Shown piece after piece: positions 7,848-24,576 of a stretch of DNA of 64,000 nt. The notes under the pieces were generated by a model. The model was not told the origin of the DNA. It saw only the letters and a list, made by a program, of their open reading frames with translations, and ran no database searches. Source of the DNA: Chthoniobacterales bacterium (GTDB lineage: Bacteria; Verrucomicrobiota; Verrucomicrobiia; Chthoniobacterales; JAATET01); contig JAATET010000031.1 in the NCBI GenBank assembly GCA_015655545.1, positions 18,099 to 82,098 of the forward strand, read 5' to 3'. How positions within the stretch are numbered: position 1 is the stretch's first letter; every line of letters starts with the position of its first letter. The position numbers and the translations under genes are program-made.

Positions 7848-8768
7848 ATGGACCGCTTTTCCATTTACCTGCTCGGAGCGCTTGCCGCAGTGCTCATCGC
7901 ATTCGGGGTGGTGGCCTATTCACGGCATCATGAAGTCGCGGAAACCCCTGCTGATCGTGCGATTTCGGTCACTTCGGCCGCGGTCACTCCGACGCCGACT
8001 CCGCAACCGCTTTTCGCAGCAGCCCCCGGCGGGACGCCTCCCGTCTCTGCGCTGGAAAATGCTTCGTTGGTTCCCCTGGTCTCGGCCAGCGCCACGACAT
8101 CGGCGCTCGATATGCCTCTCCTGGCGTCCGTGCCGACGCCGATCCCGTGGAGCCCGCCGAATTACGGAAAAGTGACGACGGTCATTTATCCCGGATTTAC
8201 GGTGGTGTATTCCTCGGCGCTGGGAAATCCCGCTGCCGTTCAATACGCGATGGTGCAGGGCGCCAAGCCGAAGCGCTACCCGCAGCCGGTGAAAGTGAAA
8301 ACGCCGGATCCGCGTCTCTTTCACAATGCGGGCTACTCCGCCGGCACGATGGCTTTTCCGGGATCGATCAGCCTTTATTTTGGCAAGCAAGCGGGCGCGA
8401 ATACGAGCCTCATGCCGAATCTCTGCGCGTTCGACCCGGCGACGTTGGCGGGACCGTGGTCCAAGCTGGCGGAGCTCGAGGTGAAATACGCTTCGACCTA
8501 CAAGTGGATCGAGATCGTGACGGGCCCGGTCTTCACGACCCCTCCGACGCAGGCAGGCAGCCTCATCGTGCCGTCCGCGTTCTACCGTGTCTATCGCCGG
8601 TCCTATGGCGATTGTCTGGCTTTCATCGTCCCGCAAGGGGCTGCCTCCACCAAAATGGAGACATATTTGACGAGCGTCTCCACCGTCGAGGCGGCGACGG
8701 GATTGCCCATTTTTGCAAATACCCTGGTGCCGGAGGCGCGAGATCAAGTCCCGGAGGCGGTATGGTAG
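7848..8768 (+). CDS. membrane-anchored DNA/RNA non-specific endonuclease-like protein, catalytic motif degenerate
   Basis: N-terminal TM helix, Pro/Thr linker, then GFTVVYS, IVTGPVF, VPSAFYRV, AFIVP, VEAATGL; GYSAGTMA replaces GYDRGHLA. Confidence 0.75.
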   Translation: MDRFSIYLLGALAAVLIAFGVVAYSRHHEVAETPADRAISVTSAAVTPTPTPQPLFAAAPGGTPPVSALENASLVPLVSASATTSALDMPLLASVPTPIPWSPPNYGKVTTVIYPGFTVVYSSALGNPAAVQYAMVQGAKPKRYPQPVKVKTPDPRLFHNAGYSAGTMAFPGSISLYFGKQAGANTSLMPNLCAFDPATLAGPWSKLAELEVKYASTYKWIEIVTGPVFTTPPTQAGSLIVPSAFYRVYRRSYGDCLAFIVPQGAASTKMETYLTSVSTVEAATGLPIFANTLVPEARDQVPEAVW

Positions 8769-8887
8769 CGGACCGGGAGTTCGAGAGAGTGCTCGTTGGC
8801 TTCTGAAAATTTGGCAGGGAGAATTTCTGATTTGCAAGTCGCGCGGAATGAGTTAACTTTTCAGCAGATTTCCCCCCCTGAAAACAA

Positions 8888-8921
8888 GGACCGGCCCGAG
8901 GTGCAAACCTCGGGCCGGTCC
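8888..8921. terminator. perfect 15-bp hairpin with GCAA loop (terminator or protein-binding palindrome)
   Basis: GGACCGGCCCGAGGT-GCAA-ACCTCGGGCCGGTCC with short A/T tracts on both sides. Confidence 0.65.
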
Positions 8922-8955
8922 GGTTTTGAGATTCTTTATAAAAATCCTGTTGCAC

Positions 8956-8971
8956 TGGCACGGGAGGTGCA
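8956..8971 (+). promoter_or_regulatory. putative sigma-54 (-24/-12) promoter
   Basis: TGGCACGGGAGGTGCA: GG and GC separated by exactly 10 nt; close to consensus TGGCAC-N5-TTGC. Confidence 0.6.
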
Positions 8972-8981
8972 TACCTTAAGC

Positions 8982-9041
8982 CTTGTTCTGGGGGGAACAA
9001 CAGGCCGTCGTGGCATTCGTCGCGGCGGCCTGTATTTTTTT
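8982..9041 (+). ncRNA. candidate ~60-nt small RNA
   Basis: Hairpin TTGTTC-TGGGGG-GAACAA, then a 15-bp stem with 3 G-U pairs and a U7 tract, starting at the predicted +1 of the sigma-54 motif. Confidence 0.5.
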
Positions 9042-9149
9042 CGGTGCGGGCCGAAAGGGAGGAATCGAGCTCTACTTCGGCAATCCAGGCCTTCCCGCGA
9101 ATCCGGCTTGTCAGGCGCGGCTTCCGCTTCTCTATTCGATTTTCGCCCG

Positions 9150-10970
9150 ATGCCTGTCTTCACGAACATTGCAGCCTACAAATTCGCTCCGCTCACGGGC
9201 TTGAAGCCGTTGCGCGAGCGGCTGATCGCGCGATGCAAGGAGGGGGGGCTCCGAGGCACCATCCTGCTCAGCACCGAGGGGATCAATCTCTTCGCTGCCG
9301 GCCCGGCTGCGGAGATCGATCGGCTCCTCGCGGAATTGCGCGAGACTCCGGGACTGGGCGATCTTTCCCCGAAGATCAGCGAGAGCGATCACCAGCCGTT
9401 CACGCGCATGCTGGTGCGCATCAAAAAAGAAATCATCGCTTTCGGCGTGGAGGGCATCGATCCCGCGGCCCGCCCTTCGCCGAAGCTCGCGGCGCGCACG
9501 CTCAAGCAATGGCTCGACGAAGGCCGCCCGCTCACGCTGCTCGACACGCGCAACGATTACGAAGTGAAGCTTGGCACGTTCCAGGGCGCGCACACGCTCG
9601 GCATCGATCATTTCCGCCAGTTTCCCGCCGCGGTCGATGCGCTGCCGGCCGCGATGAAGCAGCGGCCGATCGTGATGTTTTGCACGGGCGGGATTCGCTG
9701 CGAGAAGGCGGGGCCGTTCATGGAGCGGCGGGGGTTTCAAAATATTTTCCAGCTCGATGGCGGCATCCTGAAATATTTCGAGGAGGTCGGCGGCGCGCAT
9801 TACGACGGCGAGTGCTTTGTCTTCGACCAGCGCGTCGGCGTGGATCCGGCGCTGCGCGAGACGGATTCGTAGCAATGCTTCGTCTGCCAGACTCCGCTCG
9901 ATGCCGCCGACCAGCGCGATCCCCGCTATGTGCCGGGAAAGTCCTGCCCGTATTGCGAAAAAATCCTCGCCGACCGCATGGCGGGGAATCTCGCGCGGCG
10001 AAACGAATCCCTTCGCCGTGCCGCCACTCCGTTGCCGGGCGCGGAGCCTTATGACAACCGCCGTCCGTTGAATGTGCCGGCCGCGTTCGATGGCGCGACG
10101 TTGATCGATCTGCTTTGCGGGATCTTTCCGCAGGCGTCGCGCGAAGACTGGCTCAAGCTCTGCGAAGGCGGACAATTCGCCAAGGAAGACGGGCGCTTGC
10201 TGGAGGCGAACGAGATTGTGCGCGCGGGCGAGCGCTGCTTTCGGCTGATGCCGGCGACCGTGGAGCCGGCCGTGAATGCCGCCGTCCGCGTTCTTTACGA
10301 AGACGAGGCCGTCGTCGTGATCGACAAGCCGGCGCCGCTGCCGATGCATCCTTGCGGACGTTTCAATCGCAATACGCTCCAATTCATCTTGAATGCGGCC
10401 TACGCCCCGCAAAAGCCCCGCCCCGCGCACCGCCTCGATGCGAATACGACCGGCCTCGTCGTCTGCGGGCGCACGCGCCATTTCGCGGCGTTGTTGCAGC
10501 CGCAGTTCGAGCGTGGCGAAGTGAAGAAGACCTATCTCGTCGCGGTGCGGGGGCATCCCGCGCGGGATTCATTCACCTGCGACGCGCGGATTGGCACCGA
10601 GCCGACCGGCCCGGGCGCGCGGCGGATCGACGAGGAAAACGGCCAGCCGGCGCGCACGGAATTTCAAGTGCTGCATCGATATGAAAATGGCACCGCCTTG
10701 CTGGAGGCGCGTCCGCTCACCGGCCGCACGAATCAAATCCGCGTGCATCTCTGGCAGCTCGACCTGCCGGTCTGCGGAGATCCCGCCTACCTGCCCGCGC
10801 GAAAGATCGGCCAGGCCATGACGCTTCCACTGGAGGCGCCTCCGCTGTGCCTGCACGCCTGGCGGCTGGAGATTTGCCATCCACTCACGGGCGCGAGTTT
10901 ATCCTTCGAGGCCGCCGCGCCCGATTGGGTTCGACACTTTTCGGAAAGCGAGTGCAGTGGCATCCCATGA
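9150..10970 (+). pseudogene. trhO: TrhO (rhodanese-domain tRNA U34 hydroxylase)-RluA pseudouridine synthase fusion, interrupted by an in-frame TAG at 9870-9872
   Basis: [38 protein letters not shown]; the frame continues past TAG as QCFVCQTPL...YVPGKSCPYC, then DKPAPLP, HRLDANTTG, TGRTNQIR. Confidence 0.8.
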
Positions 10971-11707
10971 CCATTATTGAAACCTTCGCCGACCTTCCGA
11001 CTTCGCGCGGGCCGATGCGCGCGCATCTTTTCGTTCCCGCCGGCGCGGGCCGCCATCCCGGAGTCATTTTCTATTCCGAGATTTTTCAAGTCACCGGGCC
11101 GATCCGCCGCATGGCGGCGGCGTTGAGCGGACAGGGATATCTCGTCGCGGTGCCGGAGGTGTATCACGAGTTCGAGCCGCCGGGCTCCGTGCTGGCCTAC
11201 GATCAGGCAGGCTCCGATCGCGGGAATTCGCTCAAGACCACGAAGGAACTCGCGTCCTATGACGAAGATGCCGCCGTCCTCGTGAAATTTCTTTCCACGC
11301 ACGAACGCGGCACGGGAAAAATCGGCGCGTATGGCGTTTGTCTTGGCGGCCACCTGGCGGTGCGCGCCGGCCTGCATTCGGGCGTTCATGCCGTCGCGGC
11401 TTTCTATCCCACGGATCTTCACACCGGTTCGCTCGGCGCCGGAAAAAAAGACAATACCCTGGAACGGCTCGCCGGTGTGGCGACGCCCTTTTTCTTCGTG
11501 TGGGGTCGGCAGGATCCGCATGTCCCGCTCGAGGGTCGGATGAAAATCGCCGCGCGGCTGAACGAAGTCGGCACGGATTTCGAATGGCACGAATTCGATG
11601 CCGCGCACGCGTTCCTCCGCGACGAAGGCCCGCGTTACAATCCCGCCCTCGCGCACGTATGCACGAGCTTGCTGCTGCGTTTCTTCAGCGAGAAACTGCA
11701 CGAGTGA
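10967..11707 (+). CDS. dienelactone hydrolase family protein
   Basis: SEIFQVT, GVCLGG nucleophile elbow, QDPHVP, AAHAFLRD. Confidence 0.92.
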   Translation: MTIIETFADLPTSRGPMRAHLFVPAGAGRHPGVIFYSEIFQVTGPIRRMAAALSGQGYLVAVPEVYHEFEPPGSVLAYDQAGSDRGNSLKTTKELASYDEDAAVLVKFLSTHERGTGKIGAYGVCLGGHLAVRAGLHSGVHAVAAFYPTDLHTGSLGAGKKDNTLERLAGVATPFFFVWGRQDPHVPLEGRMKIAARLNEVGTDFEWHEFDAAHAFLRDEGPRYNPALAHVCTSLLLRFFSEKLHE

Positions 11708-12143
11708 CTTTTTTCACCACGCGAGTTTTTGGCGCGGCCTTCGCCTTGGGCGCTTTCGCGGCGACCGCGGCTTTCGGCGCTGGTGCGGTTGCGATCGCTT
11801 TCTCCGGAGCCCCATACGGGGGCCGGGGCGTGAAAACCGGACCATTTTCGCGCAAAGATTTCAGGCTCTCGGCCAGCAGAAGGATCGGTTTCCGCACGCC
11901 TTTGTATTGCTTGCCGGTCTTCTTGACCTGGCCATGCTGCACGAGAGTCTGCAATTTTTCGTAAGAGCGCAGCCGCAGCATTTCCTCGCCGCCGCCGGCG
12001 ACGTTACGAGCTTTTAAGGCCGCATGCACTTCCAGAAAAAGCGCCTTGAATTCATACGACTTCGGACCGGACAAAACCTCCACCAGCTCCTCCGTTACGT
12101 TATCCGGACCACGACGTGAGAAGGAACTGAATTTTGAACTCAT
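11685..12143 (-). CDS. hypothetical protein, wHTH-like core with K/A/P-rich tail
   Basis: Helical core (GGGEEMLRLRSYEKLQTLV...VKK) plus PKAAVAAKAPKAKAAPKT tail. Confidence 0.7.
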   Translation of the reverse strand: MSSKFSSFSRRGPDNVTEELVEVLSGPKSYEFKALFLEVHAALKARNVAGGGEEMLRLRSYEKLQTLVQHGQVKKTGKQYKGVRKPILLLAESLKSLRENGPVFTPRPPYGAPEKAIATAPAPKAAVAAKAPKAKAAPKTRVVKKVTRAVSR

Positions 12144-12523
12144 GCCTACCTATATCACGGATTCGCCAATAACCGCACAACTAAGAGCGATTTCTACAAA
12201 ATCACCGACGGGAGCCCGCAAACTGTCTTGAAATTAGAGAGAGGGAGTTGGCGCCGTTCGTCCCTAGCCCTCTCGGGACTTGCAACGCCGGAGGTTCTCT
12301 GGATCGGAGCTTCGCTATCCCTTCAGGAATTTCATAAAAGTAATGATCTGGATCAAAAAAAGCATGCATTTAGTAAAAAGGTCTTGCCTCCTGACAAATC
12401 AACTCGTTCTAATCCGGAGGCTTTGGCTTCCCTCTAAAAAACAGCCCACGAGCGCCATGGCGAATACCCCCCAGATTCCCGTTTTTTTACATCTGCTATG
12501 TGCGGTTATCCCCTCAAAATAAA

Positions 12524-13144
12524 ATGAAGGCGCATAATAAGAATTTCTTCAGGAAGGGGATACACCTCTCTACGATTGGGGCATTGGCGACGCTCGCCTT
12601 CACCACCCCGCATCACCTCTTCGGACTTGAGCCTCTGACCTCAGCCGGAAATTTCCAGACTGGTTCCGCGGAGACTTTTCCGACGCCGGAGGGATTGAAT
12701 TCGCTCGTTCCTGCCGAACGATTGGCTTCCCTGGAAAAAATGATTTCCGCGGATTACGACCGTAAAGCCTCGATAAGGCTTGCGATGGAAGCGGAGTTAA
12801 GCACATCCGAGCCTTCCAGTCATGTTTCCGGGCAGCCGGCAAGGGCCACGGGTCCAAGTGACCAGGAATTGAATGCCGAGTGGAGCGAATGGCATATCAA
12901 CCATGCGCTCATGGTGGCGGCCGAAGCCACTCGCCAAAGCCCCGAGTCTTCACCCCAGCGTCCCATTCCGGAACTGGTCGCAATTCACGAAGAAAAGCAG
13001 CGTCTTTTCACGGAGCTCGCAAAAGCCATGGCGACAGGAGGCGGGACATCCGCCACCGCGATGGAAAAATCCACCGCCCTCCTGCTCGAAAATCTCTCTA
13101 ATCCCCCGTCCAGCTCACCAAATCCCAATTCGAGTAACCGATGA
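12524..13144 (+). CDS. putative exported hypothetical protein (first gene of the Rhs operon)
   Basis: Basic N-terminus plus hydrophobic stretch; ATGA overlap with the next gene. Confidence 0.55.
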   Translation: MKAHNKNFFRKGIHLSTIGALATLAFTTPHHLFGLEPLTSAGNFQTGSAETFPTPEGLNSLVPAERLASLEKMISADYDRKASIRLAMEAELSTSEPSSHVSGQPARATGPSDQELNAEWSEWHINHALMVAAEATRQSPESSPQRPIPELVAIHEEKQRLFTELAKAMATGGGTSATAMEKSTALLLENLSNPPSSSPNPNSSNR

Positions 13145-13911
13145 ACCCGATCAAAACCACCTTCCTATTATCCATGGGCATGCTTTGCGGCGTGCTTCAG
13201 GCGCAGCAAGTTTTTACCACCGATGTGCAGATCACCAGCACGAACGCCGCGGCGCCAAACCTGAAGACTACCGGCCCTGGCGGCGTGCTTTTTGGCGGCA
13301 CCTTCGGCAGCGGGAGTCTTCCGACCACCGGAGATGGCGCGCGATTCATGTGGTATCCGAAAAAGGCAGCCCTCCGAGTCGGCTGGGTGGATTCTGGACG
13401 GTGGGACGACGCCAATATCGGCGATTACTCCATGGGAATCGGAGCCAACTCCATCGCATCAGGCTACAGCACGATAGCGCTCGGGTCCGCTATGGCCTCA
13501 GGGCACCAAGCCTTTGCGGCCGGCTGGGGCTCACAGGCTACGGGCAGCTTTGCCGCGGCGGTTTCCGTTGGCACCGCGACCAATTATTGCACATTTGCCG
13601 CCGCTTTGGGCACCGCCAATGGTTACCAGAGTGTGGCCCTCGGGGGGCTGGCCCTGGGCAGTTATTCCACGGCGATTGGCATAAACGCCCAATCGGTCAC
13701 GGTTGGTTCGACGGTGGTGGGGCAATACAATGAGCTGGGCGGGAATCCCACGGTCCCGGCCAATACTGATGCCATCTTCATCGTGGGCACCGGGACGGGA
13801 ACCGGCGATCGAAAGAATGGCTTCGAAGTGCGGCGCGACGGCACCGTGCGCATCGCCAAACGCCAGGGCGACATCGTGATGGGTGTTTTTGGTAACGGCG
13901 GCGGCGATTAG
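13141..13911 (+). CDS. secreted protein with YadA/Hep_Hag-like head repeats
   Basis: Signal peptide (LQA-QQ), GARFMWYPKKAALRVG...WDDANIGDYS motif, repeated SxAxG units, C-terminal RQGDIVMG. Confidence 0.75.
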   Translation: MNPIKTTFLLSMGMLCGVLQAQQVFTTDVQITSTNAAAPNLKTTGPGGVLFGGTFGSGSLPTTGDGARFMWYPKKAALRVGWVDSGRWDDANIGDYSMGIGANSIASGYSTIALGSAMASGHQAFAAGWGSQATGSFAAAVSVGTATNYCTFAAALGTANGYQSVALGGLALGSYSTAIGINAQSVTVGSTVVGQYNELGGNPTVPANTDAIFIVGTGTGTGDRKNGFEVRRDGTVRIAKRQGDIVMGVFGNGGGD

Positions 13912-13924
13912 AAGGAACCAACCC

Positions 13925-14692
13925 ATGCGACGTATCAATTTATTGACCGGACTGGCGTGCCTATTGGCATGCGGTCATTTGGACGCAGCGGAGCCTGCTT
14001 GGTGGAGATCCGGTGTGACGCAGTGCATGGATACGACTCCGAGCACCACCGAGAACTATCAGCCCGTAAATCAAGGCCAGCTCAAGAACGTTGCCACCAA
14101 GGCCGCGCTTTATCTAAATGCCACACTGGCGAGCGTGGGTGGCGCGGGCACGGCGGTTAACAACATGGTCGCCAGTTTTCAACATACGTCGGAAGACTAT
14201 GCCCCGATCAATATTGGTCAGCTTAAAGCGATAGCTAAGCCATTTTACGACCGCCTCATGGCCGTTGGTTACAACACGAAACTTAGCTTGGCATACCAAG
14301 GCGCTACAGAATGGAGCTATGATTATCCTTGGAATTCGGCGACACCAGCTTCGGAAAATTACGCAATTGCGAATATTGGTCAGTTGAAACTAGTGTTTAG
14401 TTTTGATGTGACCGATTCCGACGCAGACGGGTTGCCTGACTGGTGGGAACTGCAATATGGCGGGTCACTGACCACGTTGAACGGCGATGGCATTCACGAC
14501 ACGGACGGGGATGGCATTAGCGACCTGGCGGCGTATCAACTCGGATTGAATCCCGTCTCCAATCATCTGAACAACGCGACCGAGACCGAAAACATTAGCT
14601 ACGACGCGGCGCACCGCATCACGGCTGTGAGCGGCCGAAGTGCGCTCGGCTATACGCAAGATGCGGGTGGCAACTTGGTGCACAGCAATTAG
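13925..14692 (+). CDS. secreted protein with 3x NxGQLK repeats, DxDxDG Ca-binding motifs and terminal YD-like strands
   Basis: Signal peptide; NYQPVNQGQLK / DYAPINIGQLK / NYAIANIGQLK; DSDADGLPDWWE, DTDGDGISD; YDAAHRIT...YTQDAGGNL. Confidence 0.75.
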   Translation: MRRINLLTGLACLLACGHLDAAEPAWWRSGVTQCMDTTPSTTENYQPVNQGQLKNVATKAALYLNATLASVGGAGTAVNNMVASFQHTSEDYAPINIGQLKAIAKPFYDRLMAVGYNTKLSLAYQGATEWSYDYPWNSATPASENYAIANIGQLKLVFSFDVTDSDADGLPDWWELQYGGSLTTLNGDGIHDTDGDGISDLAAYQLGLNPVSNHLNNATETENISYDAAHRITAVSGRSALGYTQDAGGNLVHSN

Positions 14693-14704: not shown

Positions 14705-17700
14705 ATGAAAGACCGGCAGACCGTTGATAGGAAAAGTTGTTTGGTCGCCTTGCTCATCCTGGCATCGTGTGTCTTAATGGGCAATCGCACCAATGCGATG
14801 TCCTCGACAGCCTCCAGCGACGCCGATTACCGCACTCCAGAATTAATCGCCCTAGCCGCGGGATTGAAGAATGATCGGGAATCAATTTTCAAATGGGTGC
14901 GTGAAAACATCCGTTACGTGCAGTATTACGGCTGCAAAAAGGGGGCCTATCTCACATATCTGGAGCGTAGTGGAAATGATGCGGACCAGAGCGCATTACT
15001 TGTCGCTCTTTGGCGGGCTGCGGGTATTTCGTGTCAATATGTCTGGGGCTGGGGAGAATTGCCGATATCTGCCGCGAATAATGTCGATTGGTATCATTAC
15101 TTGGGTGCCGATGGTGTGCAGGACGTCGGCAACGGGAATACCTCTCTGGATCAACTGGTTTGGCTGCGTGGCGAACCGACTTATGGATGGTGGGATGGCT
15201 CTTTCTTGGCAAATAGCAAAGGGATGGCGCGAGTGTGGGTGCAAACGAACGTGAATGGCACCTTAAAAAGCTACGATCCTTCCTTTAAGTTAATTCAACC
15301 TGTCGCTGGACTCGCTGTTGCGTCACTGATGAATTACAATAGAGCAAGCTTGTTGAGCAGTTTGGGCGCTGGAACAACGGGAACCAATTCCATCACGGGG
15401 CTGAGTTATTCCGGGTTAAGTGCTTATCTTTCTGGTTGCGCCGCTCAGTTCATAACGACGTATCAAAATTCTCATTTTAATAAAACCGTCGATGAAATCG
15501 TGGGTGGCTGGAAACCTCTTTCAAGCGAGAGTCTTACATTTCCAATCACGTCGGTGATGACCACGAATGACCTATTGGATAACTTGTCCACGACCACCAC
15601 CGGTGGGCAAACGGTTTACGTGGGATACGCCTCAATTAAGATCCAGGTGTTTCTTTCGTCCGACACCGGCCACACCAGTCCCATTGTCACTTGGGGGGCG
15701 GTTAATATGGCAAGTTTAAGGGGACGGCGTCTCGGATTGGTCTCCGAGAGCAATAAAGTTACGTTAAAACTGGATGATACCCAGATCGTTCAAGCAGCGT
15801 CGACCACGACAGTCGGAACGCCCCTGGATATCGTAGTCGATATCACTCATGCGGGTTCTCCATATATAAATCCAGCTTTCAACTTGATCGGCAAGGTTAT
15901 GAAGGCAAAGGCGGGTGCAAGTTATGCGCTCGTTTATGGTTTCGATGTATCCTCGGATTATCTCAATACGCGCCAGCAGCAATTGGCAAGCTATAAGGAG
16001 CAGGGATTGGGCGATCAAGATCCCAAAATGATTTTGGAGACGCTGAATATCATAGGCCTGCAATGGATGCTCGAGACCGATTCGGCCCACGGATTAATAG
16101 GAAATCTAAAAAATCTATCGTCCACATTTCTTTATCGCTTTGGTCGGGCGGCGCAGGAACCGACGACATCAGGAAATGCTGTATATGTTGATTTGCCTTT
16201 CAATTACACCGGATATGTTTCGCGCGTGCCCGACACCGGCGCAGCGAATACCCTGACAGCGGAATCGGCCTACAGCTTTATCATGAGCGCCATGGAGCAT
16301 GGCGTGCTGGACCAGATGCAGGCGGTGACGGCTGTTTCGACGGTAAAAGTGCTTAAAATGGCCAATGAACAATCGATTCCCATTTTTCTGGCGAATCCCG
16401 GTAACTGGTCTTCAGTGCGGTCGCAATTGATACCGCTAATTAATATCTTTTCTCCCTATGGAGCCGGGGACCTCGCGCAACTCGACGGCGCTATTAGTGA
16501 AGGTGCCAGTATTTTGCTTCCCAAGAATGGTCACATAACCCAGTCCGGGTGGGCTTGGAATGGGTCTGCTTATGCCGCGATTCTTTGGAATGCGGTCGGG
16601 TCGTCGTATTGGAAAATGATCATTGGTCAGACTTACAATGGGGGTTTTTCAACCCTTCCCAATGTTCAGACCAACCCCAGTTCCGTTCTGACTCAAAGTC
16701 ATGCTCAGGCAAATCTGTTTCAAAAAAACCCGGTGACATTGAAGGTGAGTTACGGTCTCGATCCCGTGAATCTCGCGACCGGTAACTTTACGCACCAGAG
16801 GGAATTGCTCACGGCTGGGGATGGCCTTGTTCGCGGACTCAATTTCTCGGTTAGTTACGATGGGGGGGACAGGCTCAAGAACGACGCCAAGATCGGCTAC
16901 GGCTGGACCCACAGCTACTATGTGCGTGCGGTGGAAATGGCGGATGTCGATGGGGCCTTTGGGAAAAAAACACCCATCGAGATGGCGGCAACGCTTGCGG
17001 GCGTCGTGGCGGCGCTGGATGTCTTCGCCAACCGAACAACCGTGAAGGACTGGCTGGGAACGGCCTTGATTGCGAACTGGATGGTGGATCAGTTGACGGG
17101 CAGTGCCGTTTCCATCGTTTCCGGAAACCAGATTTGGCAGTTCCACAAGCAGGCGGACGGCAGCTACTCAGCGCCTCCGGGGGCGACCCAGGTGCTGACC
17201 AAACCGGCAAACTATCAACTCGTGGAGCGCAACGGTCCCACTTGGAAATTCGATGCGAATAAGCGGCTCTCAGAGATTGAAGACCTTTGGGGGAAGAAGC
17301 TGACGCTTAACTACAACACGAATGGCGATCTTGGAACCGTAGCGGACGCTTATGGGCGGACTTTGACTTTTAATTACATTGGTTCGGGTGCGGCGGCAGT
17401 TTTGAACACGGTTGCGGACAATAGCTCTCGAAGCGTGACTTTCACGATCGACAGTTCAAAAAATCTGACCGCTTTCACCGATCCGGAAGGCAAATCCGAT
17501 AATTTCGAATATGTCTCCGGACATTTGATCGCAAATTACAAAAACCACGACGGCAATGTCGTGGTCTCGAATGTCTACGATGCCCAGGGACGGGTCGCGA
17601 CCCAGGATACCATGGGCGACCCGGCCCAACGCTGGCACCTTTATTATTCTCCCGGGCAGACCATCGAGCAGGAGCCGGGCGGAGCGTCGACACTTCACTT

Positions 17701-20692
17701 TTTCGATGGCCGCAATCGTGAGGTCGAGGTGGACAATGCGTTCGGCCACCGCCTGCTGACCACCTATGACGCACAGGACCGCATCCGGAAAAAGGAACGG
17801 ATCGTCGAGACCACGGTCGACGAGACGATGCTCTACGATTATGACAATAATCATAACCTCACCGTGGAGACCGATCCCAAGGGGAAGACGACGGTCTATG
17901 CTTACGATGGCAGCAATCAGCTCACGAGTGTGAAGGACAAGCGCGGTAATTACACCTATTACCAAAACTACAATGCGCAGCATCAGCCGCAGCAGATTAC
18001 CGATCGGGAAAACCGGGTCGTCACCTGCACCTACAAACCACCCGCCGATCCGGGGGCTGGCTATCTCGCCTCGGTTACGGAGGGCGGGTTTACGACCAGC
18101 TATGGCTACGACGCCAAGGGCGCGTTGAATTCGATCACCTATCCCGGCGGCGCCGGCGAGAGCATGGTGAATAACGCCTTTGGGGATCCCGCCACCAGAA
18201 CCGATGAACTCACCCGGCAGACGCTCATCGAGTATAACCTGCGCCGCGAAGTCACCAGCACGACCACCCCCGGCTCGAGTAGCGGCTCGCGGACAAGCTA
18301 CATGAGCTATGACAATAAGCGCGACCTGCTCGGGATATGGAATCCGCGAGGATATGCGACTTTTACGTTTCAGACCGTGACGCACAAGCCGGGGCAGACG
18401 ACCCTGCCCGACGGCAGCGTGGCGTGGAGCCTCTACGACATCAACGACCGTGTGCAGTGGACCGCCACGTTATTGACGCTCTGGACTCACCACACCCGGG
18501 ACACGCTGGGGCGGGAGACGGCCCTCACCGATCCCATCGGTCGGACGACGACCACGATCTTTCAGGACGACCTCCGCAAGACGATCGTGCAGAGCCCGTC
18601 GCCGCTCAATATCCAGACCAAGGCGACCGTCGACGAGCGCGGGCAGGTGGTGCGGGACGAGGACGGCCTGGGCAACTATGCGACTCCCGGCTACGACGAC
18701 AACGGCAACAAGACGACGTGGATCGACCGCCGGGGGAAAACGTGGTCATTCGTCTACGACAAGGAGGATCGGCTGATCACGACGACGAGCCCGCTCTCCC
18801 GGGCGACGCAGAGCCCATATAACGCGCGAGGGCTGCTCGATCACATCACCGAGCCCTCCACGCAAGTGACGACGTTCGGCTACGATGGGAGGCGACGCCT
18901 CACGAGTCGTGCCGACGCCGTGGGAACGATCAATTACGGGCTCGATAACGCGAGCCAACTGCTCACCGTCACGCAAGGCGCGGCGGTGCTCGCGCGCACC
19001 TATTATGGCAGCGGGGAGGTCGCGACCTATAAGAACGCGAACAACGAGACGACCGGCTACGATTACGACAAGGATGGCAACCTGACCTCGCTGACGTATC
19101 CGGCGGTCGGAAGCGTGCCATCGGCGACGGTGACCTACACGTATGACAATCGCGACCGGCTGACGAGCATGACGGATTGGGCGGGGCGGATCACCACCTA
19201 TTCATGGGACGCGGAAGGGAAGCTGACGGGAGTGACCCGGCCTAACGGGACGAAGAGGCGATTGAGCTGGGATTGGGCGGGGGAGATGCTGGCCGTCGAG
19301 GAGAGGCCGGCGAGCGGAGCGCCGCTGGCGGTGCGATCCTTCCATTACGACGCGGCGGGACGAATCGACAAACGCCTGATCTATCCGCAGGCGACGGCGT
19401 GGGCGGAGCCGGCGTGGACGGCGGTTCCCGACAACGACAATCGACTCACGTCGGTGGCCGGAGCGACGTTGAGCTACGACGCGGATGGCAACCTGCAGGG
19501 AAGCCGTTTGCCGGACGGCCCATGGGGATCGAGCGGCACGTCCTCGGGGGTGAGCGGGACATTTACCTGGAATGCGCGCAATCAACTCACGGGCGTAGTC
19601 CGGACCGGAGGGCAGACGGCCGGCTACACCTACGACGCGGAAGGGAATCTCATTCAGACGGTCGATAGTGTGGCGGGAACGACACGGTGGATCATTGACC
19701 CAAACGGAGGCGAGAGCCCGCGCATTCTGGCGAAGGTGGCGCCCAATGGAAACGTGACGCGCTACGTATATGGAGTTGGCCTTGTCTATGAAGTGAGGCA
19801 GGATGGGAGCGTGCGCTACTATCACTACGATCAGGTGGGGAGCACGGTGGCGTTGACCGACGGCACCGGCGCGGTGACAGGGAGGGCGGACTACAGCCCG
19901 TATGGCACCCTGCAAAGCACGAGTGGAGAATTGGCCAATGCGAATGCCACGCCATTTCTCTTCGTAGGGGCCTATGGAGTGATGACGGATTCGGTGACGG
20001 GGCTACATCAGATGCGGGCTCGGTGGTATTCAAGCTACTTGCGTCGGTTCCTCAATGAAGACCCCAGCAGATTTGCGGGCGGGGAGAACTTTTATGCTTA
20101 TGCTTCAGGCAATCCTATCAGCCTTGTTGATCCGAGTGGATTGTGGGGCGTCCAATTTGGGGAAGATGGAATGAATATTGGGAAAGGAGATCCAACGCTC
20201 GTTTTTACGGCGAGAGGAACGTCGAACGCTTATGGAAGTGTATTAAGCTCTATTGCAGATACGCTCACGCTTTCAGGTGGGCGTCTTTCAGCAGCCAATG
20301 AAAATTTCCGTTCGGGAGGTCGAGAGCCAATCAACGTAAATCCTAATACTCTAGACTTTAGTCAATTGAAACCCGGACAAAAGTTTTATACCTTTCCGAT
20401 TACTTCGCCGGGGGATTTTGTTGTCCATGGAACGGTATTAGTCAATCCTTCCACAATGAGCGTTCGCGACGATTATGATTTTGATCTTAAGCCGTGGACC
20501 TTAAAAACTGCGGTGAGAAATACAGAAACGATAGCAGCCCATTTTATTGCCGATCCGCTTGATGCGTTTACTGATTTCTCTGGTAGAAGAACTGGATCTG
20601 CAAATAAATCTGGGAATGGGGCATTTCCATTTAATTTCACGAGTTCTATTTCGAGTGTCGGCTCAAAATCTTCTGGCTCTATTTGGAAATGA
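14705..20692 (+). CDS. Rhs/YD-repeat polymorphic toxin with signal peptide and transglutaminase-like N-terminal domain
   Basis: DPVNLATGNF, many YD repeats, core YYHYDQVGST...RARWYS...RFLNEDP, NPISLVDPSGL/W cleavage motif, AT-richer C-terminal domain. Confidence 0.93.
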   Translation: MKDRQTVDRKSCLVALLILASCVLMGNRTNAMSSTASSDADYRTPELIALAAGLKNDRESIFKWVRENIRYVQYYGCKKGAYLTYLERSGNDADQSALLVALWRAAGISCQYVWGWGELPISAANNVDWYHYLGADGVQDVGNGNTSLDQLVWLRGEPTYGWWDGSFLANSKGMARVWVQTNVNGTLKSYDPSFKLIQPVAGLAVASLMNYNRASLLSSLGAGTTGTNSITGLSYSGLSAYLSGCAAQFITTYQNSHFNKTVDEIVGGWKPLSSESLTFPITSVMTTNDLLDNLSTTTTGGQTVYVGYASIKIQVFLSSDTGHTSPIVTWGAVNMASLRGRRLGLVSESNKVTLKLDDTQIVQAASTTTVGTPLDIVVDITHAGSPYINPAFNLIGKVMKAKAGASYALVYGFDVSSDYLNTRQQQLASYKEQGLGDQDPKMILETLNIIGLQWMLETDSAHGLIGNLKNLSSTFLYRFGRAAQEPTTSGNAVYVDLPFNYTGYVSRVPDTGAANTLTAESAYSFIMSAMEHGVLDQMQAVTAVSTVKVLKMANEQSIPIFLANPGNWSSVRSQLIPLINIFSPYGAGDLAQLDGAISEGASILLPKNGHITQSGWAWNGSAYAAILWNAVGSSYWKMIIGQTYNGGFSTLPNVQTNPSSVLTQSHAQANLFQKNPVTLKVSYGLDPVNLATGNFTHQRELLTAGDGLVRGLNFSVSYDGGDRLKNDAKIGYGWTHSYYVRAVEMADVDGAFGKKTPIEMAATLAGVVAALDVFANRTTVKDWLGTALIANWMVDQLTGSAVSIVSGNQIWQFHKQADGSYSAPPGATQVLTKPANYQLVERNGPTWKFDANKRLSEIEDLWGKKLTLNYNTNGDLGTVADAYGRTLTFNYIGSGAAAVLNTVADNSSRSVTFTIDSSKNLTAFTDPEGKSDNFEYVSGHLIANYKNHDGNVVVSNVYDAQGRVATQDTMGDPAQRWHLYYSPGQTIEQEPGGASTLHFFDGRNREVEVDNAFGHRLLTTYDAQDRIRKKERIVETTVDETMLYDYDNNHNLTVETDPKGKTTVYAYDGSNQLTSVKDKRGNYTYYQNYNAQHQPQQITDRENRVVTCTYKPPADPGAGYLASVTEGGFTTSYGYDAKGALNSITYPGGAGESMVNNAFGDPATRTDELTRQTLIEYNLRREVTSTTTPGSSSGSRTSYMSYDNKRDLLGIWNPRGYATFTFQTVTHKPGQTTLPDGSVAWSLYDINDRVQWTATLLTLWTHHTRDTLGRETALTDPIGRTTTTIFQDDLRKTIVQSPSPLNIQTKATVDERGQVVRDEDGLGNYATPGYDDNGNKTTWIDRRGKTWSFVYDKEDRLITTTSPLSRATQSPYNARGLLDHITEPSTQVTTFGYDGRRRLTSRADAVGTINYGLDNASQLLTVTQGAAVLARTYYGSGEVATYKNANNETTGYDYDKDGNLTSLTYPAVGSVPSATVTYTYDNRDRLTSMTDWAGRITTYSWDAEGKLTGVTRPNGTKRRLSWDWAGEMLAVEERPASGAPLAVRSFHYDAAGRIDKRLIYPQATAWAEPAWTAVPDNDNRLTSVAGATLSYDADGNLQGSRLPDGPWGSSGTSSGVSGTFTWNARNQLTGVVRTGGQTAGYTYDAEGNLIQTVDSVAGTTRWIIDPNGGESPRILAKVAPNGNVTRYVYGVGLVYEVRQDGSVRYYHYDQVGSTVALTDGTGAVTGRADYSPYGTLQSTSGELANANATPFLFVGAYGVMTDSVTGLHQMRARWYSSYLRRFLNEDPSRFAGGENFYAYASGNPISLVDPSGLWGVQFGEDGMNIGKGDPTLVFTARGTSNAYGSVLSSIADTLTLSGGRLSAANENFRSGGREPINVNPNTLDFSQLKPGQKFYTFPITSPGDFVVHGTVLVNPSTMSVRDDYDFDLKPWTLKTAVRNTETIAAHFIADPLDAFTDFSGRRTGSANKSGNGAFPFNFTSSISSVGSKSSGSIWK

Positions 20693-21012
20693 ATTTCTTT
20701 AAATGGCGGTTTCTATTTGAGATAGCAATGGGAGTGGTTTACCTAACGGGGTGCCACGAACTTAAGATTGATGAAAAGGAAGCTCGAAAGTATGCACAAC
20801 AGCGCTTTGAAAAAGATTGCGAAATGATCAATCAACGAGCGGATAAGTTCGTTGGGCCGCAATTCACAGGAACAAGTAAAGGTAATACAGGGGAAATATG
20901 GTATCAATACGTGTGGGAAAATAAACTTTCCAATACGGAAATTATCGTTGGAGTGTCTGAATCTGGAGAAATCGCAGGAGGGACAGGCCCGATTGAGCGA
21001 CGGCAACCATAG
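20689..21012 (+). CDS. putative cognate immunity lipoprotein
   Basis: ATGA overlap with the Rhs stop, AT-rich, lipobox LTGC. Confidence 0.75.
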   Translation: MNFFKWRFLFEIAMGVVYLTGCHELKIDEKEARKYAQQRFEKDCEMINQRADKFVGPQFTGTSKGNTGEIWYQYVWENKLSNTEIIVGVSESGEIAGGTGPIERRQP

Positions 21013-21079
21013 CAACAGAGGTGCCAAAGATTTGAAGAGAATCACGACAAGCTTCTTAAACTCTGAAGAAAAAGAAAAA

Positions 21080-21101
21080 GGGTCAGTCCTCATTATTGAC
21101 A
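21080..21101 (+). repeat. transposase-end motif copy A (contains TTGACA)
   Basis: GGGTCAGTCCTCATTATTGACA, about 30 nt upstream of the transposase ATG. Confidence 0.85.
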
Positions 21102-21130
21102 AAAGAGGGATGAGAAGTTAAAGGGCGAGG

Positions 21131-22048
21131 ATGCCGAGGCAGGCGCGGATTGAATACGAAGGGGCGATTTACCATGTGATGAACCGCGGGGACCGGCGGG
21201 AGAACATCGTGCATGGGGACGAAGACAGAAAATCTTTCGTGAAGACGTTGGGGGAGGCTTGCGGGAAATGCGGATGGGAGGTTCACGCATGGTGCCTGAT
21301 GTCGAACCATTTTCATTTGGTGGTGGAAACTCCACTCGGCAATCTAGTGGCGGGAATGAAATGGCTCCTGGGCACCTATACGATCCGGTTCAATGCACGG
21401 CATCGACTGCGCGGGCACCTGTTTGCGGGGCGCTACAAATCTGTAGTTGTCGACGACGCGGATCACCATTACTTGCGTCGGGTGAGCGACTACGTGCATC
21501 TCAATCCCGCCCGTGCAGGATTGATCAGCCAGAGCGAGCCTTTGGAAGCCTACCCGTGGAGCAGCTATCGGGCCTATCTGCAAAAGAAGCGTCCACCTTG
21601 GCTCAGGGTGGATCGTGTCCTCGGCGAGCATGGCGTGCAAATCGATAACCATGCGGGACGGCTTGAATTCGCGCGATGCGTGGAAGCCATTCGGAATGAT
21701 CCAGAGGCTGAGGCGAGTGATCGAAGCCTGTTGCGGGGATGGCGCGCCGGGAGCGAAGAATTTGTCGCCCGGTTGCTGGACAGGCTCGAGGGAAAAATCA
21801 CGCCGCACCACTCTGCCGATATGCGGAGCGAGGTGATGTCACTGCGGGCCGACAGATTGATTGCGGAAGGTCTTGCCAAGGCAAACTGGACAGCAGATCG
21901 GCTTGCGCACGAGAAAAAGAGCCACCCGGTAAAAGTCGCCATTGCCAAGCAACTGCGATCCCAAACCACTATGAGCCTAGCTTGGATTGCGGACCGACTC
22001 CACATGGGACGTTGGACGTATGTTTCCAGTCTTTTAAGACAACAATGA
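21131..22048 (+). mobile_element. RAYT / Y1_Tnp HUH tyrosine transposase with C-terminal HTH
   Basis: YHVMNRG, CLMSNHFHLVV (HUH), GHLFAGRYKS, YVHLNP (catalytic Tyr), YPWSSY, C-terminal SLAWIADRLHMG. Confidence 0.92.
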
Positions 22049-22058
22049 GGACTGACCC
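22038..22058 (-). repeat. transposase-end motif copy B (inverted; overlaps the transposase stop codon)
   Basis: Reverse complement GGGTCAGTCCTCATTGTTGTC is 19/21 identical to copy A (first 15 nt perfect). Confidence 0.85.
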
Positions 22059-22137
22059 CATAGCCGGCCGAAAATCGGAACAACTATGTTTACGAGGTTA
22101 TTTACAACGAATTTGAGGGCCACGCATCATACCAAGA

Positions 22138-22986
22138 ATGAAACTTTTTTTCTTAAGTCTATTCATGCTCGTCAGCCCTGCTTTGATAGTAAAGGGCAAC
22201 GGATCAATCACCGATCCTGTAAAGGACTATTTATCTAAGTTTACATTTTACGATGGTCGTAAAAATTTCTATTCTGATGACAGGTTGCTTCGATTAGACA
22301 TAGATTTAAATAATGACGGTCAACAGGAAATGTTGCTCTCATTAGCAAGGGATAAAAACGGTAAACAGGGGAACACTTGGGCTGTATATCGGAAAACAAA
22401 AATCGGCTATGAAGACATAGGCGGAATGACTTTTAGCTCAAGTGGTTTTTACCTTGGACATATCAACGATACTGATGACTATGGGATTGTAAGCTTCTGG
22501 CCGGGAGGTGCTGGAGAAGGGATGTTGTTGGCACACATCTTCGATGGTTCGGAGATCAAAGAGATACAAATTGGAGAGATAAGACGGGATCCAATCACTG
22601 GAAAACTCGAAGGCAAAGAACTTCTTGATAAATATTCGGGCTCTCATGCGATAAATGGTGACAACGTGATTACTACCATAAGTGCCGTCCAACTAGCCAA
22701 AGATTACGGAATTACTATTGAACCCCAAACTTATCTCCAAGCCCTGCAGGAGGGCTTGCCAGCATCGACTCCGATAAGAACTCCTCTAGCTTCGGCTGTG
22801 GCAACACCGCCACTGGAAATGCCTAAGCCGTCCCCGTCAGCCGTAGCATCGACACCGCGACCGAGTGCGACCGCGACGACCGCCACGGAAAAGCCAGCTT
22901 CCAGCTTCTCTATCGTTTCCGCAGTGATTCTGACGGGGATAATCACGGGTGTGTCGGTGTTCATGTGGTGGCGGAAATCTCGCTAA
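22138..22986 (+). CDS. AT-rich exported protein with C-terminal membrane anchor (orphan immunity-like)
   Basis: Signal peptide, DLNNDGQQE motif, S/T/P-rich linker, TM helix plus WWRKSR. Confidence 0.75.
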   Translation: MKLFFLSLFMLVSPALIVKGNGSITDPVKDYLSKFTFYDGRKNFYSDDRLLRLDIDLNNDGQQEMLLSLARDKNGKQGNTWAVYRKTKIGYEDIGGMTFSSSGFYLGHINDTDDYGIVSFWPGGAGEGMLLAHIFDGSEIKEIQIGEIRRDPITGKLEGKELLDKYSGSHAINGDNVITTISAVQLAKDYGITIEPQTYLQALQEGLPASTPIRTPLASAVATPPLEMPKPSPSAVASTPRPSATATTATEKPASSFSIVSAVILTGIITGVSVFMWWRKSR

Positions 22987-23548
22987 TCGTCTGGTTCTGC
23001 TCGTCCCCATTGATTTAAAGGAGGTCGATGAAAAGGATCAACGATGGAATCGAGCCCCTTCGCCTAAGCGTCCTCCTTATGCCAACGATATCGGTCTTCC
23101 CGCGGACCAGATTAACAACACCGTCTATGTAGCGGTCGAGCCAACTAGCTCAAAAGTTGAACTCATCGTTAAAACATCCACTCCGAGTTTGGGGGACATG
23201 CACGCCCTGTGCGGGGTGCGTGATTTGCAGACGAACACCATCTTGGACGACGTGGCCGTTACCAATCCTTCAGGGGAAACGGAGCTTTCTTTCACCCCTT
23301 CGGGAAGCGTCCACCAGAAGCTATTTAGAGTGGTTATCGGGCTGGATCGAAACAAAGATGGAAAGCTAGGAAATGACGAGGTGGACAGCGATAACCTGCC
23401 TCAAAATCAGCGACTCTATGTGCGCGCTGTTTCAGCTCAAGATTACCAGGATTCGCTTTCCTACCTGCAAAATCGCTCTTGGTTGCTGCTTCCTTTATCA
23501 GTTTCAGCAGACTTCTTCGATTATTTCTCGGGGAATGGTTCTGGAACG
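22987..23548 (+). pseudogene. start-less fragment of a large secreted protein, truncated at motif copy C
   Basis: Open frame LVLLVPIDLKEV...GLDRNKDGKLGNDE...DFFDYFSGNGSGT; protein-like composition stops at the motif. Confidence 0.55.
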
Positions 23549-23570
23549 GGGTCAGTCCTCACTATCGACA
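23549..23570 (+). repeat. transposase-end motif copy C (direct repeat of A)
   Basis: GGGTCAGTCCTCACTATCGACA, 20/22 identical to copy A. Confidence 0.85.
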
Positions 23571-23645
23571 CATCGCCAGTAAGATTCGGTCGCCACTTAT
23601 ATAATTCCATCGATTCCTTGTTACGAAATCCTAAAGTGAAATTCG

Positions 23646-23852
23646 GTGAAACTGCAGCAGGATCAAATCTGGAAACAAGGGGACGTTTATTTGCGAATCG
23701 TCCGTCTCGAGCGCCTGAAGGTGGAATACAAAGCGCAAAAGAACATCCACTTGCGCGACGGAAAACATCATCACGTCACCAAAAAAGAATTCTGCCGCCT
23801 CATCAAAGGCGCGACGCTGCTTCCGATGACGGTGTCCGAAGAACCTGCCTAG
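23646..23852 (+). CDS. small hypothetical protein
   Basis: 68 aa MKLQQDQIWKQGDVYLRIVRLERLKVEYK...VTKKEFCRLIKGA; compact and globular-looking; GTG start. Confidence 0.65.
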   Translation: MKLQQDQIWKQGDVYLRIVRLERLKVEYKAQKNIHLRDGKHHHVTKKEFCRLIKGATLLPMTVSEEPA

Positions 23853-23880
23853 AGGCAGTCGAGAATTTCTGGAAATATGA

Positions 23881-24029
23881 ACAGGAGGAAACGGAGAGAA
23901 CGGAGACCAGTATTAACAGAAGGATGCGAAGGATGCGAAGGATGCGAAGGGGATGATTCCTCGGGCCTTTCTTTGCATCCTTCTGTTAAAAATTCCCTTC
24001 CTTCCTCACTTCCCTCCGTTGCCTCCTGT
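23881..24029. repeat. nested REP-like palindromic element
   Basis: Outer arms 23881-23896 / 24014-24029 (15/16); inner arms 23913-23931 / 23971-23989 (18/19); internal (GAAGGATGC)x3. Confidence 0.8.
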
Positions 24030-24057
24030 AGAAGTTCAGGACATCCTCTAGGCGAGC

Positions 24058-24576
24058 CTATAAAAGCATCGACTGCGGCCCGCTGGCGCTCGCTTCCACA
24101 AATTCCCGCAGGCGCAACTTCAATTCCTCCTGGGAAAACTCCGCCTGGATTTTATCGATCGCCACATTGGCGAGCACGTCGCACCGCTCGTTTCCCTCGT
24201 GTCCCGCGTGCCCCTTCAGCCACTCTCACTGCACCTGGTGTTTCGATGCCGCCGCGTCGAGGACGCGCCAAAGGTCGGCATTTTTGACCGGCTGTTTGGC
24301 TTTGGTGCGCCAGCCGTTGCGCTTCCAGCCCGCGAGCCATTGCGAAATGCCATTCTGCACGTATTTCGAATCGGTATAAAACTTCACGCGGCACGGTTGG
24401 GTCAGCGAGGCGAGCGCTTCGATGGCGGCCTGGAGTTCCATGCGATTGTTCGTCGTCGCCGGCACCCCGCCGCTCAGTTCCTTGAGAATTTCGCCATACG
24501 TCAGCACGGCGGCCCACCCGCCAGGACCCGGGTTCCCGCGACAGGCTCCGTCCGAATGCACCACCACTTCCTTCAT
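24058..24576 (-). pseudogene. rnhA: ribonuclease HI with an in-frame TGA at 24226-24228 (conserved Trp position)
   Basis: [57 protein letters not shown]. Confidence 0.88.

Follow-up and report, generated by a model that had tools for sequence, protein, structure and literature searches.

How did a lone transposase gene, bracketed by inverted copies of a short repeat, come to lie directly behind an Rhs toxin gene, and what is a third copy of the same repeat doing in the gene debris that follows? This question is raised by the stretch of Chthoniobacterales DNA analysed here (the window, 64 kb in full, lying on contig C119 of its own assembly, G000), in which repeats A and B flank the gene of a predicted HUH transposase, P0001, and repeat C stands alone further downstream. 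An earlier note on this DNA had proposed that the transposase cuts at the repeats and so captures or shuffles toxin and immunity cassettes. Judged from its sequence, the unit formed by A, the transposase gene and B is instead a TIRtron, a mobile element of an already published type, and the whole locus is probably an ordinary TIRtron plus one solo end, set behind the Rhs gene in AT-rich DNA that is peculiar to the strain and littered with remains of polymorphic toxins.

Within the window the 13-mer GGGTCAGTCCTCA is found at three places only, 21080 (+), 22046 (-) and 23549 (+), which confirms the three copies on which the earlier proposal was built; A and B are identical at 19/21 positions when one is inverted, and A and C at 20/22 in direct orientation. 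Allowing up to two mismatches to the 13-mer, the window gave four matches where 0.90 were expected, a number reached in 3 of 100 shuffles. A scan of the whole assembly (3.0 Mb, 84% complete), a check that the earlier note had itself proposed, returned A, B and C as the sole copies at up to one mismatch. Because of this uniqueness and of the identities between the copies, the three repeats are real and not due to chance. The exact 13-mer was found in only 5 of the 61 related genomes, G000 counted among them. The idea of a dispersed REP, for which many genomic copies would be expected, was rejected at three copies.

The layout around the gene is also as had been described. The TTGACA of A (21096-21101) lies 29 nt upstream of the transposase ATG at 21131, the stop codon TGA (22046-22048) is contained in B, and A and B are both headed (G)GGGTCAG, A having three G only; the gene is thus bracketed by an inverted pair of the type GGGGWSAS. 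As single-stranded DNA (ssDNA), A, B and C fold no better than shuffled sequences (z 0.31, 0.04 and -0.19), so "non-palindromic" is a fair description for the element of the window, while some ends in relatives do make hairpins (L035, 8-bp stem, z -3.4). The likeness of C to A ceases at the inner edge of the repeat.

The enzyme had been read as a Y1/HUH transposase of the RAYT branch (RAYT, REP-associated tyrosine transposase), and domain search, alignment and fold all agree. P0001 matched Y1_Tnp in Pfam (1.3e-12); its best NCBIfam model was the REP-associated tyrosine transposase NF047646, at 50.7 bits for a cut-off of 80, and the IS200 model NF033573 gave 17.5 bits for a cut-off of 55. Across 26 sequences (P0001 and 25 homologues) H60, H62 and Y121 are invariant, in the motifs N59-H60-F-H62 and DYVHLNP. 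The AlphaFold2 model of P0001 (predicted local distance difference test, pLDDT, 85.7) had as top match in the PDB the E. coli REP-associated transposase with bound REP hairpin, 4ER8 (E 8.6e-7, TM 0.71 on target), followed by the transposases of IS608 and ISDra2. The C-terminal tail of ~70 residues is modelled as a helical domain (pLDDT 91.4), the nearest structures being the DnaA DNA-binding domains 3PVP, 8BTG and 1J1V, with a root-mean-square deviation of 2.2-2.7 A over ~70 columns and non-significant E values (0.9-3.3). At E<=0.01 Pfam detected no helix-turn-helix (HTH) in the tail of any of the 26 members, a search with residues 201-305 of P0001 gave none at E<=1 either, and the tail profile retrieved spurious ABC matches only from the PDB sequences. 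The label of an HTH-bearing transposase is thus plausible, if weakly shown, since the DnaA fold matches are non-significant and the 26 members lack a Pfam HTH.

Elements with this architecture were described by Di Nocera, De Gregorio & Rocco (2013, BMC Genomics 14:522, PMC3733652), who named the transposases TIRYT and the elements TIRtrons, with terminal inverted repeats (TIRs) of consensus GGGGWSAS; in that account some of the ends reach into the gene, and certain genomes also contain end copies that stand alone, in pairs or in groups. In Quentin et al. (2018, BMC Genomics 19:475, PMC6006769) the TIRYTs make up subclass 2.1 of TnpA_REP, with tails resembling Bac_DnaA_C, HTH_23 or HTH_28. The premise that HUH and RAYT enzymes normally work without TIRs is therefore outdated, because TIRYTs and TIRtrons with GGGGWSAS ends were already in print. 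The parts of these two papers that were available to us make no mention of Rhs or toxin loci, our literature search found no published link between TIRtrons and Rhs, and a full-text search with the bare motif returned irrelevant primer matches only.

Transposase homologues were found in 37 of the 61 related genomes, commonly as several diverged copies each, whereas the gene is single-copy in G000. An inverted end pair brackets the gene in 27 of 29 fetched homologous loci (two of the 29 required a wider fetch for the pair to be seen); one of the remaining two is truncated by a contig end and the other has no right copy. Both members of the pair start with GGGGTC(A/G/T)G and in most cases close with (A/C)TTGACA, the left end being located ~30 nt upstream of the start and the right end at or just past the stop. 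The variable middle of the ends co-varies between both ends of each locus.

Mobility is evident in the relatives only, as near-identical copies at different sites. In G013 two copies are 98.98% identical over 1177 bp, G015 has a copy of 96.8% identity, and G019 holds two sharp-ended copies that share 99.7% of 1135 bp and carry perfect inverted repeats of 23 bp. No target duplication was seen at the near-identical copies of these three genomes. The inverted repeats of G019 start 7 nt outside the G-run, so that the mobile unit reaches beyond the point at which cutting had been proposed, and cutting at the G-run is not borne out. Ends can also outnumber genes: G029 has 42 end copies and one gene, and G018 has 49 matches to the end pattern against 4 for a control pattern. 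Moreover, a series of decay products is found in relatives, in which the left end is followed by 19, 22, 43 or 108 transposase codons; one "solo" end of G028 retains the first 19 codons, and the "solo" ends of G028 with such stumps therefore look like deletion products.

At five loci of G013 and G015 (L050, L051, L052, L077 and L078) one to three tandem partial units of ~13-15 bp (...AAAATGGGGTCAG) lie outside the full repeat of the TIRtron ends. The number of units varies between copies otherwise 99% identical, and they may be the trace of an end-processing mechanism.

Table 1. Features of the TIRtron locus and of the surrounding Rhs island, in window positions.
Feature	Position	Strand	Description	Basis or remark
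TIR A	21080-21101	+	Left TIRtron end	Same position and orientation in homologous loci
TIRYT gene (P0001)	21131-22048	+	305 aa; Y1/HUH tyrosine transposase, RAYT branch, helical C-terminal domain	Pfam, NCBIfam, fold
TIR B	22038-22059	-	Right TIRtron end	Overlaps transposase stop codon
TIR C	23549-23570	+	Solo end copy within Y'	Orientation as A
X'	22064-22141	+	25-codon tail of a toxin-like gene	Cut off close to B, a few nt from its outer end
P0002	22138-22986	+	282 aa; complete gene, signal peptide and C-terminal membrane anchor	
Y'	22991-23668	+	~225-codon remnant of a ~420-aa module	3'-truncated where conserved chromosomal DNA begins
Rhs repeat protein (P0004)	14705-20692	+	1995 aa; N-terminal transglutaminase-like domain, C-terminal tip	Pfam, TIGR03696
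109-aa open reading frame	20683-21012	+	Overlaps Rhs stop; candidate immunity gene	Position only
68-aa open reading frame	23646-23852	+	Small, conserved, GTG start; first chromosomal gene right of the island	

The position of C was decisive for the cassette proposal, in which a reading frame was said to break off exactly at this repeat. The open reading frame (ORF) 22949-23956 runs uninterrupted through C. When three full-length homologues of Y, the protein family to which the remnant around C belongs, were compared with the genome by tblastn, the alignments reached C119:41086-41766, that is 22988-23668 of the window and ~100 nt past C. In pairwise blastp 5 of 9 Y homologues align for 30-40 residues past C, with a gap of 9 residues exactly at C; of the remaining pairs, one stops just past C and three do not reach it. 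The piece following C gave no significant match when searched alone (best E 0.54); by eye, conserved residue spacing is kept after the gap (P-x7-YN-x8-P[KR]xK). The similarity to Y ends at ~23650-23680, where DNA common to other members of the genus begins with the start of a small ORF (23646). Because the frame is open through C and the likeness to Y continues some 35 codons beyond it, C appears to be a solo end inside a decaying gene remnant and not a cassette cut point.

The DNA between B and C was indeed found to be AT-rich (GC 0.38-0.56), in an AT-rich region that flanks the TIRtron on both sides, from ~20.1 to 23.65 kb. The transposase gene itself has a genome-like GC of 0.55-0.61, and downstream the values are ~0.6-0.7. 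The segment that follows B starts, as had been noted, in a gene fragment (X'), whose stop overlaps the start of P0002 (ATGA). The identity of X' is given by its relatives. In tblastn, 6 of 11 metagenome loci have a P0002 homologue immediately preceded by a large protein whose last residues match this tail, with the same 4-nt overlap, as seen between the full genes at two of these loci (L065 and L072). These two X proteins, one of 1494 aa with Big_7, TSP3 and fn3 domains and the other of 810 aa, have only the C-terminal ~365 aa in common, at 47% identity. Because X proteins share the C-terminus only, as polymorphic toxins do, X' is best read as what remains of a toxin-like gene. The G000 assembly does not contain the missing part of X, and the C-terminal module, which may resemble a lytic transglycosylase, had no match among PDB sequences at E<=1.

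P0002 has 11 homologues among 5.8 billion proteins, all aligned full-length, and matched no Pfam or NCBIfam family; across 401 genomes of the phylum three weak matches were obtained besides its own. Going by its position only, it probably serves X as immunity protein or partner. Thus the picture of B adjoining a truncated toxin-like gene and an orphan immunity-like gene, behind an Rhs toxin, holds up. As an observation in its own right, X and the P0002-type gene (22064-22986, and loci L064-L072) form a rare pair with a 4-nt overlap, neither member having a Pfam family or a PDB sequence match, which looks like an undescribed toxin-immunity pair.

The Y family comprises 24 homologues found by HMMER (P0018-P0041, 450-1080 aa), in which the module sits at the C-terminus of large secreted proteins with variable N-termini; it has no Pfam family, TSP3_bac was detected in 2 of 10 homologues, and the module, whose first half is what Y' retains, may be another polymorphic-toxin payload. 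A word-index search with the Y' fragment returned the window's own protein only. A reading of 23051-23548 as an ABC-ATPase (NCBIfam E 5e-6, far below cut-offs) was dropped when HMMER gave the true family. When X' and Y' were considered as orphan Rhs modules, which begin with a piece of Rhs core able to recombine with the main gene, no Rhs core was found in either, and their homologues are large non-Rhs proteins with Big_7, TSP3 or fn3 domains. An ORF just upstream of the Rhs gene (13883-14692, +; see also G000:C119:129129-129668) has an N-terminal domain with 33% identity over 162 aa to the N-terminus of the Y-family protein P0022, and this shared domain may serve export or trafficking of these toxin-like proteins.

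The Rhs protein P0004 matched RHS_repeat (1.5e-49), Transglut_core and DUF6531 in Pfam, and its TIGR03696 core occupies residues 1730-1813 (19892-20143 of the window); the only other Rhs core in G000 is on contig C102. No known family was matched by the tip, where GC drops to 0.40-0.48, and the 109-aa ORF behind it matched no Pfam or NCBIfam family and has no paralogue in G000. G003, G006 and G004 lack the Rhs island (~12.1-23.65 kb) at the matching place, and the neighbourhood there is rearranged. The island's left boundary is without the motif and its right boundary lies 76 nt from C, at the 68-aa ORF, which has a DNA identity of 85% to G004 and 72% to G003, with the likeness starting at the start codon; this right-boundary comparison rests partly on G004, an unpublished genome. 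No DNA match to the B-C segment, the Rhs tip or the 109-aa ORF was found in 7 genus members, and the B-C DNA has no paralogue in G000.

Read evidence was taken from Logan contigs of the one run that contains this DNA, probably that of the source sample. A contig of this run spans 20000-24039 with 0 differences and no joint at any repeat; since contigs cannot show rare excision products, the absence of alternative joints is uninformative. Likewise, the contigs, blind to such products, and the genus comparison gave no junction, circle or strain-to-strain breakpoint at the motif.

Taken together, these results would fit the following course of events. A ~0.98-kb mobile element, made of one TIRYT gene (RAYT-like, with a tail resembling DnaA domain IV) between ~22-bp TIRs headed GGGGTCAG, would have inserted into AT-rich, strain-specific DNA that held the leftovers X' with P0002 and Y'. 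X would have been truncated at B most simply by an element-adjacent deletion, or else the TIRtron would have inserted at an older orphan junction. C would be all that is left of a second copy, or else an end that spread by itself, as in those relatives that have more ends than genes. We infer both the order of these events and the deletion mechanism. Rhs and toxin islands might gather such elements because insertions are tolerated there, and a common orientation of ends may stem from the strand bias known for ssDNA transposons.

Several points weigh against this ordinary explanation. In the window, X' is broken off only a few nt from the outer end of B, as site-specific joining would also yield, and what C preserves is precisely the repeat, with no part of the transposase gene, a rare outcome for random deletion. 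In relatives, ends or doublets regularly occur between cassette-like ORFs in G029 and G048; the 15 solo ends located <=4 kb downstream of Rhs cores share one orientation, coming from 6 genomes only (three further matches scored as opposite are not end repeats); and 9 of 13 end-pattern matches in G028 and both in G034 fall within 3 kb of Rhs cores. The proximity of TIRYT matches to the Rhs core TIGR03696 was counted across the 61 genomes, with 10 of 107 clustered loci at <=3 kb against 0.42 expected (a ~24-fold excess), figures to be read with a threshold picked after seeing the data, expectations derived from rounded genome sizes, and genomes related to each other. Excluding the locus of the window, 9 of 106 loci remain near a core. 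Such TIRYT genes are mostly placed alike, 8 of the 10 being on the same strand, 0.8-2.0 kb downstream of the core, where the tip and immunity genes have just ended.

In relatives the association with Rhs loci is real, and it is not specific, because rve transposases (PF00665), taken as a control, are over-represented to a comparable degree: 3 of their 77 loci are near cores where 0.2 would be expected, which does not separate them from TIRYT (Fisher p = 0.24). The ends themselves tell a similar story. In the end-pattern scan 150 of 370 matches were listed, and per-genome counts come from fully listed genomes. Seven genomes picked for co-location had 17 of 78 matches at <=3 kb from a core against 0.65 expected, and the other 16 fully listed genomes had 0 of 138, judged by eye, so that in the 23 together 17 of 216 matches are near Rhs and 199 (~92%) are not. 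An association of these elements with Rhs loci is thus supported; its specificity is not. In several relatives TIRtron ends are nevertheless truly in excess behind Rhs modules and uniformly oriented there, which leaves cassette capture a small chance.

Among the loci fetched, G048, G029 (two loci), G028 (four contigs), G034 (two loci), G037 and G059 have solo ends, doublets or stumps that separate successive cassette-like ORFs downstream of an Rhs gene, and two of these arrays may be described separately. At L097 (G029:C6, 7432-9530) an Rhs gene and a 170-aa ORF are followed by two ORFs of 165-170 aa separated by 117-bp inverted end doublets; the doublets fold into long hairpins (z -12) and the layout is integron-like. 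At L088 (G048:C1, reverse strand, 8396-13470) there are two small rhs genes of 591 aa, both with an N-terminus of their own that resembles a signal peptide. A conserved leader of 263 bp precedes each gene and includes a TIRtron end ~110 nt before it, and a truncated end copy terminates the array.

The reading closest to the original proposal is that TIRYT nicks oriented ends and moves toxin and immunity modules through ssDNA, with solo ends and doublets acting like attC. It would account for the enrichment of TIRYT loci close behind Rhs cores on the same strand, for ends standing between successive cassettes in G048, G029, G028, G037 and G059, for the long hairpins of the doublets, for the cut of X' adjacent to B and for the single orientation of solo ends. 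Against these stand, in the window, C lying inside a continuing gene remnant and not at a module boundary, the number of sites in its genome (only three), and island boundaries that fall off the motifs. Relatives are no more favourable: in G029 an orphan module was recently duplicated, and its junction lies not at the repeat but 290 bp within an element that repeats enclose, while 34 of the 42 near-identical ends in G029 lie elsewhere in the genome; the "solo" ends of G028 bear transposase stumps; the Rhs arrays of G006 and G012 are without ends; and both the rve control and the large majority of end-pattern matches away from Rhs (138 of them judged by eye) count against it. HUH-driven cassette capture is thus unsupported in the window and weakened by the control, and we consider it improbable. 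A broader form, in which oriented TIRYT ends, solo or as hairpin-forming doublets, would be joining or expression signals that build and reorder toxin and immunity arrays behind Rhs genes in this verrucomicrobial order as an HUH counterpart of attC, seems to us just as doubtful.

No better placed, and in our judgement also unlikely, is the possibility that the ends donate a promoter, the inward -35-like TTGACA driving downstream orphan genes and left-end relics being retained for that reason. The hexamer is found ~30 nt before the transposase ATG in most homologous loci, solo ends are co-directional with the ORFs downstream of them, and the small rhs genes of G048 carry an end in their conserved leader; however, a consensus scan detected no sigma-70-type promoter at A or C, with the limit that this consensus may not be the one of the phylum, and C reads TCGACA, with the nearest TATAAT 29 nt away. 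That C resembles A by chance or coding constraint and is no transposon end is very improbable: it is in frame in a coding remnant and translates as GSVLTID where relatives have a hydrophobic strand, but it matches A at 20/22 positions, it shares with A and B a 13-mer otherwise absent from 3.0 Mb, and relatives are gapped by 9 residues at its position.

Two further observations concern the DNA to the right of the island. In rnhA (RNase H; 24143-24576, -) there is an in-frame TGA at ~24226-24228, where G003 and G006 have Trp (the W in ...VQWEWLKGHAGH...); the source-run contig agrees with the window (0 differences), and the TGA may represent a nonsense mutation or a pseudogene, read-through being less likely. 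A short dispersed repeat at ~23871-24051 has copies on contigs C1, C37, C74, C92, C96, C106 and C119 of G000 and in G004; it holds three tandem copies of a 9-mer (translated RRMRRMRRM), and Logan contigs break there.

To our knowledge TIRtrons are the subject of two published descriptions and of no laboratory test so far. Under the favoured reading, a TIRtron with a solo end among toxin leftovers, the locus adds one TIRtron and corrects the belief that HUH transposases with TIRs were unknown. More useful is that, within a single bacterial order, the region right behind Rhs toxin-immunity modules is clearly enriched in TIRtrons, in stumps of them and in solo or paired ends. If this excess were specific and catalytic, it would offer a mechanism for the assembly of orphan toxin and immunity arrays; if not, Rhs loci are mobile-DNA sinks in which TIRtron ends are frequent deletion endpoints, which matters for the annotation of truncated toxin genes.

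How does the element compare with named systems? Likeness to integron arrays of attC and IntI is by analogy only, through the end doublets of G029 as folded single-stranded sites between promoterless ORFs. Integrons use a tyrosine recombinase and not an HUH enzyme, and they have an attI-like site and demonstrated cassette mobility, neither of which is present here. Such arrays also have a recombination site at each cassette boundary and turnover that breaks at these sites; in the window C is not at a cassette boundary, lying inside Y', the island boundaries fall off the motifs, and relatives give a mixed picture. H-rpt/ISAs1 in the Rhs loci of E. coli is an insertion sequence found habitually right behind Rhs tip and immunity genes, although it belongs to an unrelated DDE transposase family; we know of no catalytic role in cassette exchange for it either.

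With IS200/IS605 elements (IS608, ISDra2) the element has in common the Y1 HUH fold. These elements have an ssDNA chemistry with strand and orientation bias, which the element of the window likely shares. They differ in having subterminal hairpins on one strand and no TIRs, whereas the element of the window has TIRs, and the score of P0001 with the IS200 model likewise places it outside this family. Systems of RAYT and REP or REPIN are closer: the E. coli TnpA_REP of 4ER8 is the best structural match of P0001, and a single-copy gene located between inverted copies of its cognate repeat is a common trait (cf. Bertels 2017, as far as that account was available to us), as are the dozens of near-identical repeats, often in inverted doublets, of relatives such as G029. 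The element of the window is nevertheless not a RAYT/REP system in the strict sense, which calls for a GTAG-tagged hairpin and high copy number; it has three repeat copies that do not fold and an NF047646 score below cut-off, and many relatives hold several diverged or duplicated gene copies, in the manner of insertion sequences. The closest system is TIRYT/TIRtron itself, with which the element of the window shares a RAYT-like Y1/HUH protein longer than RAYTs and with a tail that is plausibly of HTH type, TIRs that fit GGGGWSAS and in some cases lie over gene ends, and the occurrence of solo, paired and grouped ends. Nothing essential sets the two apart, the particular traits of the window element being its single copy, its one extra solo end and its place behind an Rhs gene.

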